Of a DNA stretch of 5,615 bases, positions 1-5,615 are shown in pieces. The notes beneath the pieces are model-generated. The model was not told the DNA's origin, did not search any database, and worked only from the letters and a program-made list of their open reading frames with translations. The stretch lies in the IMG/VR virus record IMGVR_UViG_2606217104_000006, positions 1-5,615 of that record; one strand, written 5' to 3'. Origin of the DNA: a virus. Taxonomy: Duplodnaviria > Heunggongvirae > Uroviricota > Caudoviricetes. The position numbers and the translations under genes were made by a program. Each line of letters opens with the position of its first letter. Within the stretch, counting starts at the first letter, position 1.

Positions 1-589
1 CGAGCTGTACCGGGATGGCCGGATAACGGAAGCCGCCTGTTGGGCTCACGCCCGCCGTAAAATCCACGATGTGCACGTTCGCACCCCGTCAGCCCTGACG
101 GAGGAAGCGCTGAAACGGATCGGCGAACTGTACGCCATCGAGGCAGAGATAAGGGGAATGACGGCGGAGCAGCGCCTTGCCGAACGTCAGTTGAAAACGA
201 AACCGCTGCTGAAATCCCTGGAAAGCTGGCTGCGTGAAAAGATGAAAACCCTGTCGCGACACTCAGAACTGGCGAAAGCGTTCGCATACGCCCTGAACCA
301 GTGGCCGGCGCTGACGTACTATGCGAACGATGGCTGGGCTGAGGCGGACAATAACATCGCTGAAAATGCGTTGCGGATGGTCAGTCTGGGCCGCAAAAAC
401 TACCTGTTCTTCGGTTCGGATCATGGAGGAGAGCGGGGAGCGCTGCTGTACAGCCTGATCGGGACGTGCAAACTGAACGGAGTGGAGCCAGAAAGCTACC
501 TCCGCTATGTCCTTGACGTCATAGCCGACTGGCCGATAAACCGGGTCGGCGAACTGCTCCCCTGGCGCGTAGCACTGCCGACTGAATAA
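1..589 (+). CDS. IS66-family transposase (TnpC/orf3 type), C-terminal ~195 codons; 5' end lies upstream of the window
   Basis: Open frame enters from the window edge (codon phase from nt 2) and ends at TAA 587-589. The translation contains [12 protein letters not shown] and [71 protein letters not shown], which I recognise as the conserved C-terminal region of IS66-family transposases. Family knowledge only, no search run. Confidence 0.88.
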
Positions 590-626
590 CACATCCCCGT
601 CAATACGGTTCTTGCTGCACGCTTAC
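1..626 (+). mobile_element. Right-hand end of an IS66-family insertion sequence (partial; the rest of the element is upstream of the window)
   Basis: The transposase stop at 589 is followed 37 bp later by a sequence whose reverse complement reads GTAAGCGTGCAGCAAGAACC (nt 626 back to 607). From memory this matches the GTAAGCG-type terminal inverted repeat of IS66-family elements. Immediately after nt 626 the sequence becomes phage tape-measure coding sequence. Confidence 0.75.
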
Positions 627-2079
627 GGCTGAGGCGGGTTCGGTGATCACCCAGTTCAGCCAGGCGCTGGCACAGGGTGTGTTGCGCGGTGAGGAATTTA
701 ATTCGGTCAATGAAAGTGGTGACCGGATCATTCGTGCACTGGCTGCAGGCATGGGCGTGGCCCGTAAAGATCTGAAGGCGATGGCGGACGATGGTCAACT
801 GACGGCGGATAAAGTCGTTCCTGCGTTAATCAGCCAGCTGGAGGTATTGCGTGATGAATACGCGGCCATGCCGGAAACGGTCTCTGACGGGATCACAAAG
901 GTGGAAAACGCCTTTATGGCCTGGGTGGGTGGTGCGAATGAGGCCAGCGGGGTGACGAAAACGCTCTCCGGCGTGCTGAACGGTGTTGCCGGACAGATTG
1001 ATAATGTGGCAACAGCCGTGGGGGCACTGGTTGCCGTCGGGGTTGCCCGGTACTTTGGCAATATGGCCTCCGGAGCGATGTCTGCCACGGCAGGACTTGT
1101 GACGGCTGCACGTAATGAAGTTGCACTGGCGGAAGCACAGTTCAGGGGAACGCAGATTGCCACGGCGCGGGCAAGGGCAGCCGTGTACCGTGCTCAGCAG
1201 GCCGTGGCGGCAGCCCGCGGGACGGAGATGCAGATTGCTGCAGAGGCCCGTCTGGCGGCCACACAGGAACGCCTGAACAGAAATATTGCTGCCAGAAGCG
1301 CCGCCCAGAATGCGCTGAACAGTACAACGGCGGTGGGCTCACGTCTGATGAGCGGTGCGCTGGGGCTGGTTGGTGGCGTACCCGGACTGGTGATGCTGGG
1401 GGCTGCAGCATGGTACACGCTGTACCAGAATCAGGAGCAGGCCAGGGAGTCTGCGCGCCAGTATGCACTGACGATAGATGAAATCGCGCATAAAACGCCG
1501 TCAATGTCTCTGCCTGAAGCCTCAGATAATGAAGGACGAACACGGGCGGCGCTGACAGAGCAGAACCGGCTGATTGATGAACAGGCCAGTCGGGTGAAAT
1601 CCCTGCAGGAAAAAATCGCAGGATATCAGTATGTTCTGGCGAACCCGGGCTGGACGACCGGTGACGGATTCATGATAAACCATCTGACATCGGTGAAGAC
1701 CGTAAATGCCCGTTTTCTGGATGCGGTGAATTTTGTGGCGGGCAATCCGGAAGCGGACCCGGAGCAGGAGCTGAGCGACCGCTGGGTGGTGGAGCAGATG
1801 TCAGAGCTGACGGCCATGACAGCCTCGTTTGTGCTGGCAACACCGACGGAGACGGACGGAGCGCTGTTTCCCGGTCGCATTATGCTGGCGAATACCTGTA
1901 TGTGGACCTACCGCTCTGATGAGTGTGGTTACACGGGCGGGGCTGTGGCGGATGAGTTCGATAAACCCACCACCGATATCCGTAAGGACAGATGCAGCAA
2001 GTGCATGCGCGGGTGTGAGATGCGCGGCATGGTGGCTAATTTTGGCGGTTTCCTTTCCATTAACAAACTTTCGCAGTAA
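627..2079 (+). pseudogene. Chimeric tail-gene remnant: tail tape-measure protein N-terminal fragment fused in frame to the C-terminal cysteine-rich domain of minor tail protein L (gpL-like); 5' end interrupted by the IS66 element
   Basis: Continuous ORF (ORF track 643-2079; coding phase is already open from nt 628). The N-terminal part (FSQALAQGVLRGEEFNSVNE...KDLKAMADDGQLTADKVVPALISQLE) resembles the conserved tape-measure N-terminal domain, followed by an Ala-rich coiled-coil region and a hydrophobic Gly-rich segment (LMSGALGLVGGVPGLVMLGAAAWY) typical of tape-measure proteins. From at least nt 1708 (ARFLDAVNFVAGNPEADPEQE...GRIMLANTCMWTYRSDECGY...DRCSKCMRGCEMRGMVANFGGFLSINKLSQ) it matches the C-terminal half of lambda gpL as I recall it, including the conserved Cys cluster. 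The junction lies roughly between nt 1560 and 1700 and cannot be placed exactly by eye. Confidence 0.75.
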
Positions 2080-2087
2080 TGGATTAT

Positions 2088-2112
2088 GCCCACCATCAGG
2101 TGGGTTTTTTGT
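2088..2112 (+). terminator. Rho-independent terminator downstream of the L remnant
   Basis: GC-rich inverted repeat CCCACC (2089-2094) / GGTGGG (2099-2104) with a 4-nt loop ATCA, followed by TTTTTT (2105-2110). The stop codon of the minus-strand Mnt-like gene (TCA at 2096-2098 on plus, read as TGA on minus) lies in the loop. Confidence 0.7.
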
Positions 2113-2470
2113 TGTCATCACCAAGATATTTCTGCTTATATTCCTCTGAAAGAGGAATTGATCTTTCAACCATGCTAATAAGTTTATCTACTTGTTTTTT
2201 CTGTTTTTCTATGATTTCTAAAAGTTGAGGTATAAGTTTTTCATGCTCGCTTTTATCATATTTTCTGTTTATCGCATCTAGTTGTTCTTTAAACTGCTGA
2301 ACGATAGGACCATCCTCCGGCCCAAAATCACGACAAACACGAATCGCCAACTCAAGCAGAGTGACAATCTCAGCATTCATAGAACGATTATTTTGTTTTG
2401 ATGACGCTTCAATTATTTTTTTTAATTCAACAGGAAGCCTAATCCGAAGTTGAGGGTCTTCTCTACTCAT
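2096..2470 (-). CDS. Mnt-like ribbon-helix-helix (Arc/MetJ superfamily) transcriptional repressor with an extended C-terminal coiled-coil region (124 aa)
   Basis: ORF track 2096-2470 minus. The N-terminus MSREDPQLRIRLPVELKKIIEASSKQNNRSMNAEIVTLLELAI has the beta-strand and two-helix pattern, including the N(G/N)RSMN(S/A)E motif, that I recall from P22 Mnt and Arc. The C-terminal half is charged and heptad-like (QQFKEQLDAINRKYDKSEHEKLIPQLLEIIEKQKKQVDKLISMVE), consistent with an oligomerisation coiled coil as in Mnt. It is transcribed divergently from the Arc-like/Ant-like genes. The Shine-Dalgarno is weak. Confidence 0.8.
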   Translation of the reverse strand: MSREDPQLRIRLPVELKKIIEASSKQNNRSMNAEIVTLLELAIRVCRDFGPEDGPIVQQFKEQLDAINRKYDKSEHEKLIPQLLEIIEKQKKQVDKLISMVERSIPLSEEYKQKYLGDDNKKPT

Positions 2471-2507
2471 ACCATTAGTCCAAACAGGAAAAATTCACAA
2501 TAAGTAA

Positions 2508-2536
2508 ATTATGCCCCACGGTGGGGTTGACTTCAA
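2508..2536 (-). promoter_or_regulatory. Predicted sigma70 promoter for the Mnt-like gene (Pmnt-like), arranged back-to-back with the plus-strand promoter
   Basis: On the minus strand: -35 TTGAAG (plus coordinates 2536-2531), 17-bp spacer, -10 CATAAT (plus coordinates 2513-2508). Its -35 overlaps the -35 of the plus-strand promoter by 2 bp, and the 13-bp palindrome 2514-2526 sits in its spacer. Confidence 0.45.
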
Positions 2537-2555
2537 TGACGCACGGTGTGACAAT
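2527..2555 (+). promoter_or_regulatory. Predicted sigma70 promoter for the Arc-like/Ant-like operon (Pant-like)
   Basis: -35 TTGACT (2527-2532), 17-bp spacer, -10 GACAAT (2550-2555) preceded by TG at 2547-2548 (extended -10). The predicted start near 2562 leaves a ~32-nt leader before the AAGGAG Shine-Dalgarno (2583-2588) and ATG 2594. Confidence 0.5.
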
Positions 2556-2593
2556 TTTGATTGCCCCACAGTGAGGCTATTTAAGGAGTGGAG

Positions 2594-2761
2594 ATGGAAA
2601 AAGCAAAAGACATGTATCAACGCAAGGTTCGTTTCCCAGAGGATGTAAGGAAGGCGATTGAAAGAAATGGAGAAAAAGAGTGTCGACAGTTCAACACGGA
2701 ACTTATTTATCAATTGAGAAAAGTGTACGGACTGATTGGAGAGAAGAATGCTAGGACATAA
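2594..2761 (+). CDS. Arc-like ribbon-helix-helix repressor (55 aa); not in the supplied ORF track, presumably below its length cutoff
   Basis: ATG 2594 is preceded by a strong Shine-Dalgarno AAGGAG (2583-2588, 5-nt spacing); TAA at 2759-2761. Translation: MEKAKDMYQRKVRFPEDVRKAIERNGEKECRQFNTELIYQLRKVYGLIGEKNART. The RKVRFPEDV strand followed by two short helices parallels P22 Arc (FNLRWPREV...NGRSVNSEIYQRV, recalled from memory). Small size and position immediately upstream of an antirepressor gene both fit. Confidence 0.7.
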   Translation: MEKAKDMYQRKVRFPEDVRKAIERNGEKECRQFNTELIYQLRKVYGLIGEKNART

Positions 2762-2830
2762 AAATAGCGAAGCCCGACAGTGCGCGAACACAAATCGGGC
2801 TTCTATGTCAGTAACTTCCAAGGAACTAAC
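2762..2830 (-). ncRNA. Predicted sar-like antisense RNA (~68 nt) complementary to the Arc-like/Ant-like intercistronic region and the Ant-like ribosome-binding site
   Basis: Minus-strand promoter with near-consensus elements inside the 5' end of the Ant-like gene (see next feature) predicts a start near nt 2830. A 9-bp perfect stem (2769-2777 / 2795-2803, 17-nt loop) is followed on the minus strand by GCUAUUUUUAU (plus 2768-2759), a plausible intrinsic terminator ending just after the Arc-like stop codon. The transcript would be antisense to the Ant-like Shine-Dalgarno (2819-2825). Confidence 0.4.
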
Positions 2831-2833
2831 GAA

Positions 2834-3754
2834 ATGAGTATAGCAACAGCGGTATCTACTATCAACGTGCCATTCCACGGCGCAGAGCTTTATGTCGTCA
2901 ATCACAACGGCGAACCGTACACCCCAATGAAACCTATCGTTGAGGGAATGGGTATGGATTGGGCTTCACAGTTTACAAAGTTAAAACAAAGATTTGCTAA
3001 AGGTATTGTGGAAATCGCAATACCTTCAGTTGGCGGTATGCAGACCATGATTTGCCTTGCTTTGCGTAAACTGAATGGTTGGCTCCAAACCATCAGTCCT
3101 AACAAAGTCCGCCCTGAAATCCGCGAGAAGGTAATCCAGTATCAGGAAGAGTGTGACGATGTGCTCTACGAGTACTGGACTAAAGGCCATGTGATTAACC
3201 CGCGCAAAGCTAAAAAGGCATTGCTGGGGAAAATCACCACTGAACAGCAGGAAGCCATTAAACAACTCGTCATGAGTCGCGGTCAGTCTCTGCCAAAAGA
3301 AAAACAGGCGAAGGCGATGATCACCATGTGGTCGTCACTGAAATCCCATTTTGGATGTTCGTACAAAGAAATTAGTGAGGAGCAGTTTACCGAAGCACTG
3401 TCACTTGCTGCTCGCGTTCCGCTTGAAGGTGAGTTCATTGGCAAACAAGAGAAGAAAACCAACGAGCTTTCTGCAAAAGAAGCAAACAGCCTTGTATGGT
3501 TATGGGATTATGCTAACCGCTCACAGGCATTATTCCGCGAACTGTATCCGGCGCTAAAGCAAATTCAATCGAACTATTCCTGCAGATGCTACGACTACGG
3601 TCATGAGTTCTCGTATGTTATTGGAATGGCGAGAGACGTTTTAATCAATCACACGCGAGATATTGATATTAATGAGCCAGACGGACCAACGAATCTTTCT
3701 GCATGGCTAAGACTTAAGAACAAAGAATTACCTCCTTCACTGCATCACTACTAA
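2834..3754 (+). CDS. Phage antirepressor (P22 Ant-like; P22 antirepressor N-terminal-type domain)
   Basis: ORF track 2780-3754, but the start is more likely ATG 2834, preceded by AAGGAAC (2819-2825); the GTG at 2780 lies inside a hairpin loop and has no Shine-Dalgarno. TAA at 3752-3754. The N-terminal region VPFHGAELYVVNHNGEPYTPMKPIVEGMGMDW...RPEIREKVIQYQEECDDVLYEYW matches my recollection of the N-terminal domain of P22-type antirepressors. It sits downstream of an Arc-like gene, as ant does in P22 immI. Confidence 0.72.
   Translation: MSIATAVSTINVPFHGAELYVVNHNGEPYTPMKPIVEGMGMDWASQFTKLKQRFAKGIVEIAIPSVGGMQTMICLALRKLNGWLQTISPNKVRPEIREKVIQYQEECDDVLYEYWTKGHVINPRKAKKALLGKITTEQQEAIKQLVMSRGQSLPKEKQAKAMITMWSSLKSHFGCSYKEISEEQFTEALSLAARVPLEGEFIGKQEKKTNELSAKEANSLVWLWDYANRSQALFRELYPALKQIQSNYSCRCYDYGHEFSYVIGMARDVLINHTRDIDINEPDGPTNLSAWLRLKNKELPPSLHHY
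2837..2865 (-). promoter_or_regulatory. Predicted promoter of the sar-like antisense RNA, located within the first codons of the Ant-like gene
   Basis: Minus-strand -35 TTGATA (plus 2865-2860), exactly 17-bp spacer, -10 TATACT (plus 2842-2837). Both hexamers are 5/6 matches to consensus. Confidence 0.5.
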
Positions 3755-3772
3755 CAGATTGCCAACGAAATG

Positions 3773-3796
3773 ACCCAGCTTCGGCTGGGTTTTTTA
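3773..3796 (+). terminator. Rho-independent terminator downstream of the Ant-like gene
   Basis: 7-bp stem ACCCAGC (3773-3779) / GCTGGGT (3784-3790) with a UUCG tetraloop (3780-3783), followed by TTTTT (3791-3795). Confidence 0.8.
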
Positions 3797-3808
3797 TCAG
3801 GAGTTCTC

Positions 3809-4546
3809 ATGCTCTATAGCAATATATTGGCGCACGCCCGGCGATGTGCGCCAGCGGAGTCGTGCGGCTTCGTGGTGAGAACGCCGGAGGGGGAAAGATA
3901 TTTTCCCTGCGTGAATATCTCCGGTGAGCCGGAGGATTATTTCCGGATGGCTCCGGAGGACTGGCTGCAGGCCAAAATGCAGGGTGAGATTGTGGCGCTG
4001 GTCCACAGCCACCCCGGTGGCCTGCCCTGGCTGAGCGAGGCCGACCGGCGGCTGCAGATAAAAAGTGCACTGTCCTGGTGGCTGGTCTGCCGGGGGGACA
4101 TTCATAAATTCCGCTGTGTGCCACATCTGACAGGACGGCGCTTTGAGCACGGGGTGACGGACTGTTACACGCTGTTCCGGGATGCCTACCATCTGGCGGG
4201 AATTGATATGCCGGATTTTGAGCGTGAGGATGACTGGTGGCGCAACGGTCAGAACCTTTACCTGGACAATATGGCGGTCACCGGCTTTTACCGGGTGCCC
4301 CTGTCCTCTGCACAGGCGGGCGATATCCTGCTGTGCTGCTTTGGCGCATCGGTGGCCAATCATGCCGCCATTTACTGCGGCAACGGTGAACTGCTTCACC
4401 ATCTGCCTGAACAACTGAGTAAACGGGAGAGGTATTCCGAAAAATGGCAACGACGAACGCATTCTGTCTGGCGTCACCGCCACTGGCACGCATCTGCCTT
4501 CACGGGGATTTACAACGATTTGGCCGCCGCCTCAGCCTGTACGTGA
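3809..4546 (+). CDS. K: Tail tip assembly protein K (lambda gpK-like; JAB/MPN plus NlpC/P60 domains)
   Basis: ATG 3809 with AGGAG (3799-3803) 5 nt upstream. The ORF-track start at 3770 would place the first 13 codons inside the preceding terminator hairpin, so it is rejected. The translation contains the JAMM-type motif VHSHPGGLPWLSEADR and an NlpC/P60-like Cys/His pair (GVTDCYTLF ... NHAAIYCG), and is collinear with lambda K as I recall it (ILAHARRCAPAESCGFVV...). Confidence 0.88.
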   Translation: MLYSNILAHARRCAPAESCGFVVRTPEGERYFPCVNISGEPEDYFRMAPEDWLQAKMQGEIVALVHSHPGGLPWLSEADRRLQIKSALSWWLVCRGDIHKFRCVPHLTGRRFEHGVTDCYTLFRDAYHLAGIDMPDFEREDDWWRNGQNLYLDNMAVTGFYRVPLSSAQAGDILLCCFGASVANHAAIYCGNGELLHHLPEQLSKRERYSEKWQRRTHSVWRHRHWHASAFTGIYNDLAAASACT

Positions 4547-5124
4547 ACACGGCAGCGGAAGCCATCCGGGCGCTGTCGTTACAGGTGCCGGGATTCCGCC
4601 GTCAGATGAACGAAGGCTGGTACCAGATACGTATTCGCGGTGAGGACACGGCACCGGAGGCGGTGTACGCCCGTCTTCACGAACCTCTGGGTGAGGGGGC
4701 GGTCATCCATATTGTGCCGCGACTGGCCGGAGCCGGAAAGGGCGGACTGCGGATTGTGCTGGGGGCGGCAGCCATCGTGGGCTCTTTCTTCACTGCCGGA
4801 GGCTCGATGGCGTTATGGGGTACAGCCCTGAGTGCCGGTGGTTTTTCTGCCACCACGATGCTGTTTTCACTGGGTGCCAGCATGATTCTGGGTGGTGTGG
4901 CCCAGATGCTGGCACCGAAGGCAAAAACACCGGATTACCGCGCAACGGATAACGGTAAACAGAACACGTATTTTTCGTCACTGGACAATATGATTGCCCA
5001 GGGTAACCCGATGCCGGTGCCTTACGGGGAAATGCTGGTTGGTTCACGACGGATATCCCAGGACATCAGCACCCGTGATGAAGGCGGGGGCGGAAAGGTC
5101 GTGGTTATCGGGCGGCAGGGGTAA
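4444..5124 (+). CDS. I: Tail tip assembly protein I (lambda gpI-like)
   Basis: ATG 4444, TAA 5122-5124. The translation (ASPPLARICLHGDLQRFGRR...VIHIVPRLAGAGKGG...GASMILGGVAQMLAPKAKTP...GKQNTYFSSLDNMIAQGNPMPVPYGEM) closely parallels lambda gpI as I recall it. Its 5' end overlaps the 3' end of K by 103 bp in a different frame; I recall a K/I overlap of about this size in lambda. Confidence 0.9.
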   Translation: MATTNAFCLASPPLARICLHGDLQRFGRRLSLYVNTAAEAIRALSLQVPGFRRQMNEGWYQIRIRGEDTAPEAVYARLHEPLGEGAVIHIVPRLAGAGKGGLRIVLGAAAIVGSFFTAGGSMALWGTALSAGGFSATTMLFSLGASMILGGVAQMLAPKAKTPDYRATDNGKQNTYFSSLDNMIAQGNPMPVPYGEMLVGSRRISQDISTRDEGGGGKVVVIGRQG

Positions 5125-5155
5125 AAAGAATAAAAAAATCCCGCAGAGTTGCGGA
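5125..5155 (-). terminator. Possible minus-strand intrinsic terminator in the I-J spacer
   Basis: Short GC-rich stem CCGCA (5141-5145) / TGCGG (5150-5154) with loop GAGT. On the minus strand it is followed by a run of 7 U (plus-strand A-run 5132-5138) and further U-rich sequence. The stem is only 5 bp, so this is tentative. Confidence 0.35.
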
Positions 5156-5294
5156 ACTGAGGGAGCGTTACGAAGATTAAGTGTAAGGAATTATTCTTAT
5201 GTCACGACAAAAAACATTAACGCAGAGAAATTATTAGCACCACAGTCAGTTTGTAAAAATGTGAAGATATTCAGAAGTTTTATTCAGTGATGAT

Positions 5295-5326
5295 ACAGGC
5301 ATCCTCAGGGATGCCTGTTGTTTTTG
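5295..5326 (+). terminator. Strong rho-independent terminator 34 bp upstream of the J start codon
   Basis: Perfect 10-bp stem ACAGGCATCC (5295-5304) / GGATGCCTGT (5309-5318) with loop TCAG, followed by TGTTTTT (5319-5325). Confidence 0.7.
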
Positions 5327-5359
5327 TGCGTAACAGTTATCACAGTAAAGGGTGAGACA

Positions 5360-5615
5360 ATGGGCAAAGGTGGCGGCAAGGCGCACACACCGCGCGAGGC
5401 GAAGGACAATCTCAAATCCACGCAGATGATGAGTGTGATTGATGCGATTGGTGAGGGACCGATAGAAGGCCCGGTGAAAGGCCTGCAGAGTATTCTGGTG
5501 AACAAAACCCCGCTGACGGACACGGACGGTAATCCCGTGATACACGGTGTGACGGCGGTCTGGCGCGCCGGGGAGCAGGAGCAGACACCACCGGAAGGCT
5601 TTGAGTCCTCCGGAG
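5360..5615 (+). CDS. J: Host specificity / tail tip central fibre protein J (lambda gpJ-like), N-terminal 85 codons; continues beyond the window
   Basis: ATG 5360 preceded by AAAGGGTGAG. Translation MGKGGGKAHTPREAKDNLKSTQMMSVIDAIGEGPIEGPVKGLQSILVNKTPLTDTDGNPVIHGVTAVWRAGEQEQTPPEGFESSG closely matches the N-terminus of lambda J as I recall it (MGKG..KGHTPREAKDNLKSTQ...GPIEGPV...RAGEQEQTPPEGFESSG). Open to the window end. Confidence 0.92.
   Translation, partial: MGKGGGKAHTPREAKDNLKSTQMMSVIDAIGEGPIEGPVKGLQSILVNKTPLTDTDGNPVIHGVTAVWRAGEQEQTPPEGFESSG

Follow-up and report, generated by a model that had tools for sequence, protein, structure and literature searches.

A predicted antisense RNA related to P22 sar in the ant module of a lambda-like Escherichia coli prophage

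The small sar RNA of phage P22 binds the mRNA of the antirepressor gene ant and prevents the synthesis of Ant (Liao et al. 1987; Wu et al. 1987; Schaefer & McClure 1997; all as cited in PMC2629481, PMC11016777 and PMC13397905). The P22 record places arc at 14861-15022 and the beginning of ant at 15091, with the sar RNA annotated on the minus strand at 15021-15090, its terminator at 15021-15058 and its promoter, Psar, at 15097-15125 (also minus strand). Modules of this immI type have been described in P22-like phages under the name 'ant moron' (PMC2629481). Here we analyse a stretch of 5,615 nucleotides (nt) comprising positions 1 to 5,615 of the IMG/VR record IMGVR_UViG_2606217104_000006 (henceforth the window), which represents the tail-gene region of a lambda-like prophage of E. 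coli. An immI-type 'ant moron', consisting of an mnt-like, an arc-like and an ant gene, here sits in a siphovirus tail operon, between the genes L and K, and sequence comparison makes it highly probable that the module also specifies a cis-antisense homologue of sar of approximately 70 nt, most likely blocking the translation of Ant.

Position and homology of the sar-like element

The predicted sar-like RNA, around 67-71 nt in length, would extend on the minus strand from G2830 to approximately position 2760, with the 3' end falling within the U run at 2764-2760. Both end points are placed by register with the annotated sar of P22: since the latter begins 7 nt after its -10 hexamer, the same rule puts the start in the window at G2830. 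The presumed target on the plus strand comprises the ant Shine-Dalgarno sequence AAGGAA (2820-2825) and the start codon ATG (2834-2836); the former is contained in the stretch complementary to the RNA, as the initial annotation of this DNA had proposed, and the ATG is found 4 nt beyond it. The overall layout is that of immI in P22, with the arc stop codon lying over the sar 3' end, a terminator hairpin between arc and ant, the 5' end of sar just before the ant ATG, and Psar inside the first ant codons.

The initial annotation had left the intergenic DNA unaligned, but the arc-ant spacer does align directly with those of the phages P22, CUS-3 and TL-2011b, and the stem arms GAAGCCC...GGGCTTC as well as the motif ATG(nnn)AGTATAGCAA are invariant in all four. 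The Rfam model of sar (RF00262) assigns 97.8 bits to P22 and 15.6 bits to the window element (E 0.68 in a 121-nt search); the alignment nevertheless runs from end to end, with model positions 1-68 falling onto 2830-2766 of the minus strand and both helices kept. Scanning the entire window with Rfam at E<=10 did not recover sar, and only two of 20 diverse relatives (CUS-3 and TL-2011b) reach the RF00262 threshold. A blastn search with the 201-nt region against phage genomes retrieved 7 records only.

To compare the elements independently of Rfam, we used a set of 148 loci encoding relatives of the Ant N-terminal domain (one genome per species, plus viral contigs). MAFFT alignments of 33 and 13 sequences were dropped, as the 5' stem-loop was misaligned in them and RNAalifold found helix II only; for this reason the first-round covariance model (R1) was built from only four sequences, all free of gaps and given an explicit structure, namely those of Klebsiella grimontii, Erwinia sp., Yersinia pekkanenii and one viral contig, a selection that excludes both the window and P22. 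R1 recognizes the window element (2758-2830, minus strand) with 55.2 bits (E ~1e-10); it also recognizes sar of P22, which has been defined by experiment, with 46.3 bits (E ~1e-8), and the search of the 41.7-kb P22 genome revealed no strong match besides sar. With a second-round model (R2) the same interval of the window reaches 66 bits, and the sole match of this model in the 41.7-kb locus L004, an intact E. coli relative, is in the same place. Within Enterobacterales, at least 17 genera yield covariance-model matches. The initial suggestion that the logic of P22 sar is encoded here is thus supported by the register, the spacer alignment, the independent covariance model, the covariation described below and the flanking homologues. 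The placement between the arc-like gene and ant over the Shine-Dalgarno sequence, a promoter in the Psar register, a covarying two-hairpin structure and the significant similarity to P22 sar all support the view that the window element is a divergent homologue of this RNA.

Structure, promoter and the strand under selection

When folded, the minus-strand RNA 2830-2760 forms two hairpins with a free energy of -28.3 kcal/mol (z = -5.0), a stability matched by none of 200 shuffled sequences, so the folding that the initial annotation had suggested as a check comes out beyond chance. Stem-loop I, present in both the minimum free energy and the centroid structure and absent from the initial annotation, consists of 6 bp (GUUAGU at 2830-2825 with ACUGAC at 2812-2807, minus strand) closing a 12-nt loop, UCCUUGGAAGUU, which carries the anti-Shine-Dalgarno sequence UUCCUU. 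Stem-loop II (2803-2769, minus strand) is the candidate terminator hairpin. Its basis is a perfect 9-bp inverted repeat formed by GAAGCCCGA (2769-2777) and TCGGGCTTC (2795-2803), correctly recognized before as a perfect hairpin, which at the RNA level is extended to 10 pairs by a U·G pair and continues with a 4-bp inner stem; it folds with -22.1 kcal/mol on the minus strand versus -18.3 kcal/mol on the plus strand. Past the stem, the minus strand continues with the tail GCUA-UUUUU (2768-2760), within the sequence GCUAUUUUUAUG (GCUA-UUUUU-AUG, the U run being at 2764-2760). The U-rich tract after the hairpin was thus noted rightly, but it does not end past the arc-like stop codon, as had been thought: the U run overlaps this TAA (2759-2761). 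On the plus strand the sequence past the hairpin reads UAUGUCAGUAAC, without a U run.

Evidence for selection on this structure comes from an alignment of 46 sequences fitted to the model, in which 95.5% of the cells are standard pairs and compensatory changes on both sides are seen in 15 of the 19 pairs (none of 500 shuffles reached these values), while in a control with the partners slid by 1-3 columns pairing amounts to 33-52%. All six pairs of helix I have changed on both sides, and the 13 pairs of helix II are formed in 99.2% of the cells, nine of them with compensatory change. The wobble cells are strikingly asymmetric, with 138 G·U and not a single A·C on the minus strand, and the same positions read as the mRNA strand give a pairing of only 79%, an asymmetry which indicates that the selected structure lies on the antisense strand. 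The fold of the whole element is likewise more stable on the minus than on the plus strand, both in the window (-28.3 versus -19.5 kcal/mol) and in P22 (-29.5 versus -21.0 kcal/mol). Taken together with the U run that follows the hairpin on the minus strand only, the strand asymmetry implies that the structure is maintained for an antisense transcript. A plus-strand terminator or attenuator, considered as a separate candidate, was ruled out on account of the missing plus-strand U run and the strand-asymmetric wobble pairs.

The putative promoter of the RNA (Psar-like; 2865-2837, minus strand) is present as initially reported, with the hexamers TTGATA and TATACT separated by a 17-nt spacer and matching the consensus at 10 of 12 positions. 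The -35 hexamer (2865-2860) is the reverse complement of the Ile-Asn codons in the conserved TINVPF motif of Ant, and the extended -10, TGC-TATACT (2845-2837, with the TG at 2845-2844 and the hexamer at 2842-2837), corresponds in the same manner to AGT ATA GCA, the codons 2-4 of ant. The promoter does overlap the first codons of ant, as had been stated, and this can now be made more precise in that the -10 hexamer corresponds to AGT ATA and hence starts from codon 2. The -10 of P22 is also TATACT preceded by TGC, and the -35 of the window is nearer to the consensus than that of P22 (GTGTTA in the same register). TTGAT followed by A, G or T is found in 32 of 45 relatives. Since the -35 falls on the conserved Ile-Asn codons, however, its own conservation is uninformative by itself.

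The -10 is more telling. It reads TAnAnT in each of the 31 distinct, motif-bearing Ant N-termini that were compared, even though the residues encoded under it vary (Ser, Asn, Thr or Ile in the first codon; Ile, Leu or Val in the second), the DNA constantly being A-N-T N-T-A. The second of these codons is invariably the rare NTA form (ATA in 18/18, TTA in 10/10 and GTA in 3/3 cases, counts that are not independent events, as the N-termini are related by descent), compared with shares of 17%, 15% and 22%, respectively, of the corresponding codon families elsewhere in the same genes. The retention of NTA codons while the amino acids change suggests that the DNA is constrained here, and not the protein, and points to nucleotide-level selection holding the -10.

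It could be argued that the hairpin instead works in the sense arc-ant mRNA, as an attenuator, a stabiliser or an RNase III site, and that the promoter match is a by-product of Ant codons with no functional antisense RNA behind it. The hairpin indeed folds on the plus strand as well (-18.3 kcal/mol, z -3.9), the -35 coincides with the conserved TINV codons, and promoter-like sites are not enriched in the window. We nonetheless consider this explanation very unlikely, given that the 138 wobble cells are without exception G·U on the minus strand, so that 16% of the cells would be mismatched in the mRNA, that the hairpin lacks a U run on the plus strand, that rare NTA codons keep the -10 while amino acids change, and that the homologous P22 element is a mapped antisense RNA (PMC2629481).

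Several observations do weigh against a functional antisense RNA. The promoter-like match is, by itself, within chance in the window (6 such sites versus 4.5 +/- 2.3 expected from shuffled sequence), so the case rests on homology, structure and codon evidence. The pair counts come from an alignment fitted to the model, which leans towards the structure; a sequence-only MAFFT alignment analysed with RNAalifold yields the same result for helix II. Four nucleotides (GCUA) part the U run from the stem, and an equal spacer of 3-4 nt, then a U run, is found in the relatives, and P22 shares the spacer. The predicted RNA ends 4 nt before the ATG, versus 1 nt in P22, because there is one codon fewer between the ATG and the -10. 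The RF00262 score is below the gathering score of 43 bits, so annotation pipelines miss the window element, a failure that reflects the narrow Rfam seed and not biology. Finally, the prophage is degraded, with an IS66-family insertion and a fusion of the tape-measure and L genes, and a present-day function in this particular genome is thus not guaranteed. The first of these points, i.e. that promoter-like sites are about as many as in shuffled sequence, is also what a chance coincidence of promoter-like hexamers with an ordinary hairpin would predict, but this explanation is left with next to no probability and is effectively refuted by the covariance-model E of ~1e-10, the conservation of the position in at least 17 genera, and the covariation and codon evidence.

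The module, its host prophage and the spread of sar-like elements

The ant gene (2834-3754, plus strand) encodes an antirepressor of 306 amino acids with the domains P22_AR_N and P22_AR_C (E 9e-45 and 4e-29), 56% identical to Ant of P22, and its start at 2834 corresponds to the start annotated by PGAP in the intact relative (L004, 20755). The arc-like gene (2594-2761, plus strand) is an annotated coding sequence in L004 and specifies a ribbon-helix-helix protein of 55 amino acids, which scores 19.2 bits against Pfam Arc, slightly below the cut-off of 20.4, and shares 33% identity with P22 Arc across 40 amino acids. Divergently oriented is the mnt-like gene (2096-2470, minus strand), whose product, a putative ribbon-helix-helix repressor (Pfam Arc domain, 30.6 bits), has 124 amino acids as against 83 in P22 Mnt; the likeness to the latter (33% identical, 74% similar) is confined to the ribbon-helix-helix at residues 1-43, and the C-terminal 80 residues give no match in Pfam. 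To judge from these similarities, the flanking proteins are homologues of those of P22 immI. Three operator-like 15-nt repeats spaced 25 bp apart, TGCCCCACGGTGGGG (2512-2526), TGACGCACGGTGTGA (2537-2551) and TGCCCCACAGTGAGG (2562-2576), share the core CAC-N-GTG with the Mnt operator of P22, GGTCCACGGTGGACC. A Pant-like promoter (2527-2555, plus strand) stands back to back with a Pmnt-like one (2536-2508, minus strand), the -35 region being common to both, whereas the P22 pair stands face to face.

The module is bordered by two further hairpins. One of them, followed by a T run (2088-2105), lies directly past the L stop codon and faces the 3' end of the mnt-like gene; it shows a weak, sub-threshold Rfam match to a toxic small RNA family (20 bits versus a gathering score of 50), and is most likely just a terminator. 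The other (3772-3791) is rich in G+C and followed by TTTTTTATC; it is located 18 nt past the ant stop codon, just ahead of the K-like gene, and is probably the terminator of the ant operon, with a P22 counterpart after ant at 16012-16035. This hairpin stands in the route of late tail-operon transcription.

Positions 2080-3780 share 99.9% identity with a prophage in E. coli Res13-Lact-PEA14-20, where their counterpart is flanked by the genes for the minor tail protein L and a K-like C40 peptidase. In the window, ant is followed by the K-like gene, the tail gene I and the beginning of J, the last of which accounts for what had seemed an odd-looking right end (5100-5615). The left part is degraded. 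It contains the C-terminus of an IS66-family (ISEc8) transposase (71-589) and a single open reading frame (643-2079) that joins tape-measure sequence to the C-terminus of the tail protein L, which means that the M gene and parts of both neighbouring genes, present in intact relatives, are missing. These features, and the fact that the intact relative matches the window over 1708-5072 only, would fit the idea that the element truly descends from a common ancestor with sar but has become a relic here, in a degraded prophage whose module no longer controls anything of consequence. We regard this as unlikely, for the mnt-like, arc-like and ant reading frames and all sar elements are intact, and both an intact lambda-like prophage (L004) and six viral contigs (L073-L078) carry an identical copy of the stretch from -110 to +45 around the ant start, within which all of these elements fall. 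In addition, antirepressors can work in trans against further prophages of the same host, as established for the Gifsy phages.

Beyond Enterobacterales, R2 convincingly reached neither Acinetobacter (best E 0.014) nor Paraburkholderia, and homology outside the order is not claimed. By eye, the DNA preceding ant in these two genera does display a TAnAnT box as well as a minus-strand hairpin with a U run. A lone match on a contig of an 'Armatimonadia' metagenome-assembled genome may be a binning error. As far as can be judged from the sequences, sar-like matches precede at least three antirepressor architectures, i.e. P22_AR_N+P22_AR_C, Rha+KilAC and P22AR_C-only. The second is exemplified by a Rha+KilAC (ANT) antirepressor of Morganella (L032, 357-427), whose N-terminus MSNLAV gives the -10 TAAATT, and the third by E. 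coli HS (L153, 1501-1577). A KilA-N protein gene of Xenorhabdus (L025, 67-140) and an Icd-like pseudogene in a P4-like element (L154, 1500-1569), where only hairpin II is well conserved, are possible further cases. In Photorhabdus cinerea, a hok/sok-type antitoxin RNA (Rfam sok, 98.7 bits) is found approximately 1 kb upstream of the ant module (L019, 111-256).

A mosaic breakpoint is located at window position 2821, in the ant Shine-Dalgarno sequence and inside loop I of the sar-like RNA. From this position on, ant is 90-95% identical in CUS-3, Salmonella phage S.Kent 1-2-1 and many E. coli prophages, all of which have different upstream DNA with their own sar variant. There is perhaps an even chance that sar and the first ant codons, which hold its promoter, form a portable cassette far wider than the P22-only family of Rfam, and that the RNA could, in a defective prophage, act in trans on related ant leaders, setting cross-immunity among co-resident prophages.

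Proposed mechanism and comparison with known systems

The events at this locus may be envisaged as follows. The sigma-70 RNA polymerase would initiate at the extended -10 made of ant codons 2-4, with the -35 in the TINV codons, and transcription would run back over the ant leader until the hairpin and the U run over the arc stop codon end it, in the minus-strand direction only. The resulting RNA, which by homology with P22 is most likely about 70 nt long and either constitutive or coupled to Pant, would fold into a 5' stem-loop displaying UUCCUU and a long 3' hairpin. It would then pair with the ant leader from -4 to approximately -72, to which it is fully complementary, cover the Shine-Dalgarno sequence and stop the translation of Ant, an effect that we infer from the work on P22. 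The RNA would thus constitute a post-transcriptional lock on top of protein repression by the Mnt-like and Arc-like products.

The mechanism has been known since 1987, and the window element adds no new one. The family is, however, clearly broader than Rfam records, and annotation based on this database misses most copies. The antisense lock of P22 apparently travels with ant into lambda-like prophages, with an antisense promoter written into the first codons of Ant. Antirepressors decide prophage silence, and Ant genes of this family are present in many prophages of pathogenic E. coli, including Shiga-toxin strains; the outcome is thus a concrete candidate regulator of prophage induction and a better annotation model.

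Small RNAs are known from other phage regulatory circuits of this kind. In the secondary immunity region immI (c4-icd-ant) of phages P1 and P7, translation ahead of an antirepressor gene is blocked by the small c4 RNA, which arises by processing of the very transcript that contains its target and acts via short complementary boxes. Unlike the RNA predicted here, c4 is not a convergent, fully complementary cis-antisense RNA, and Rfam scans of the window found no match to it in sequence or structure. In phage lambda, OOP RNA is complementary to the 3' end of cII and drives RNase III-dependent decay, whereas the window RNA would cover the 5' leader and the Shine-Dalgarno sequence of its target. 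OOP is likewise a short cis-antisense RNA, is made from a constitutive promoter of its own, ends at an intrinsic terminator, and tunes a regulator of the lysis-lysogeny decision (PMC5415839).

The closest counterpart is sar of P22. The two elements have in common the position and strand between arc and ant with the 3' end over the arc stop codon, the -10 TATACT with TGC inside the first ant codons and a start 7 nt past it, two hairpins, of which the first presents the anti-Shine-Dalgarno sequence in its loop and the second, the terminator, contains G·U pairs, a length of about 70 nt and a similar fold energy. They differ in sequence, which has diverged beyond the boundary drawn by Rfam (97.8 bits for P22 versus 15.6 for the window with RF00262), in the stronger -35 of the window (TTGATA versus GTGTTA), in the one codon fewer that separates its ATG from the -10, and in the apical part of hairpin II, which is larger and bulged in the window. 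The surroundings differ as well: the Arc-like and Mnt-like proteins of the window are only 33% identical to their P22 counterparts, the Mnt-like one being longer, the promoters resembling Pant and Pmnt stand back to back instead of face to face, and the module resides between L and K of a lambda-like siphovirus prophage rather than in a P22-like podovirus. None of these differences changes the logic of the switch.

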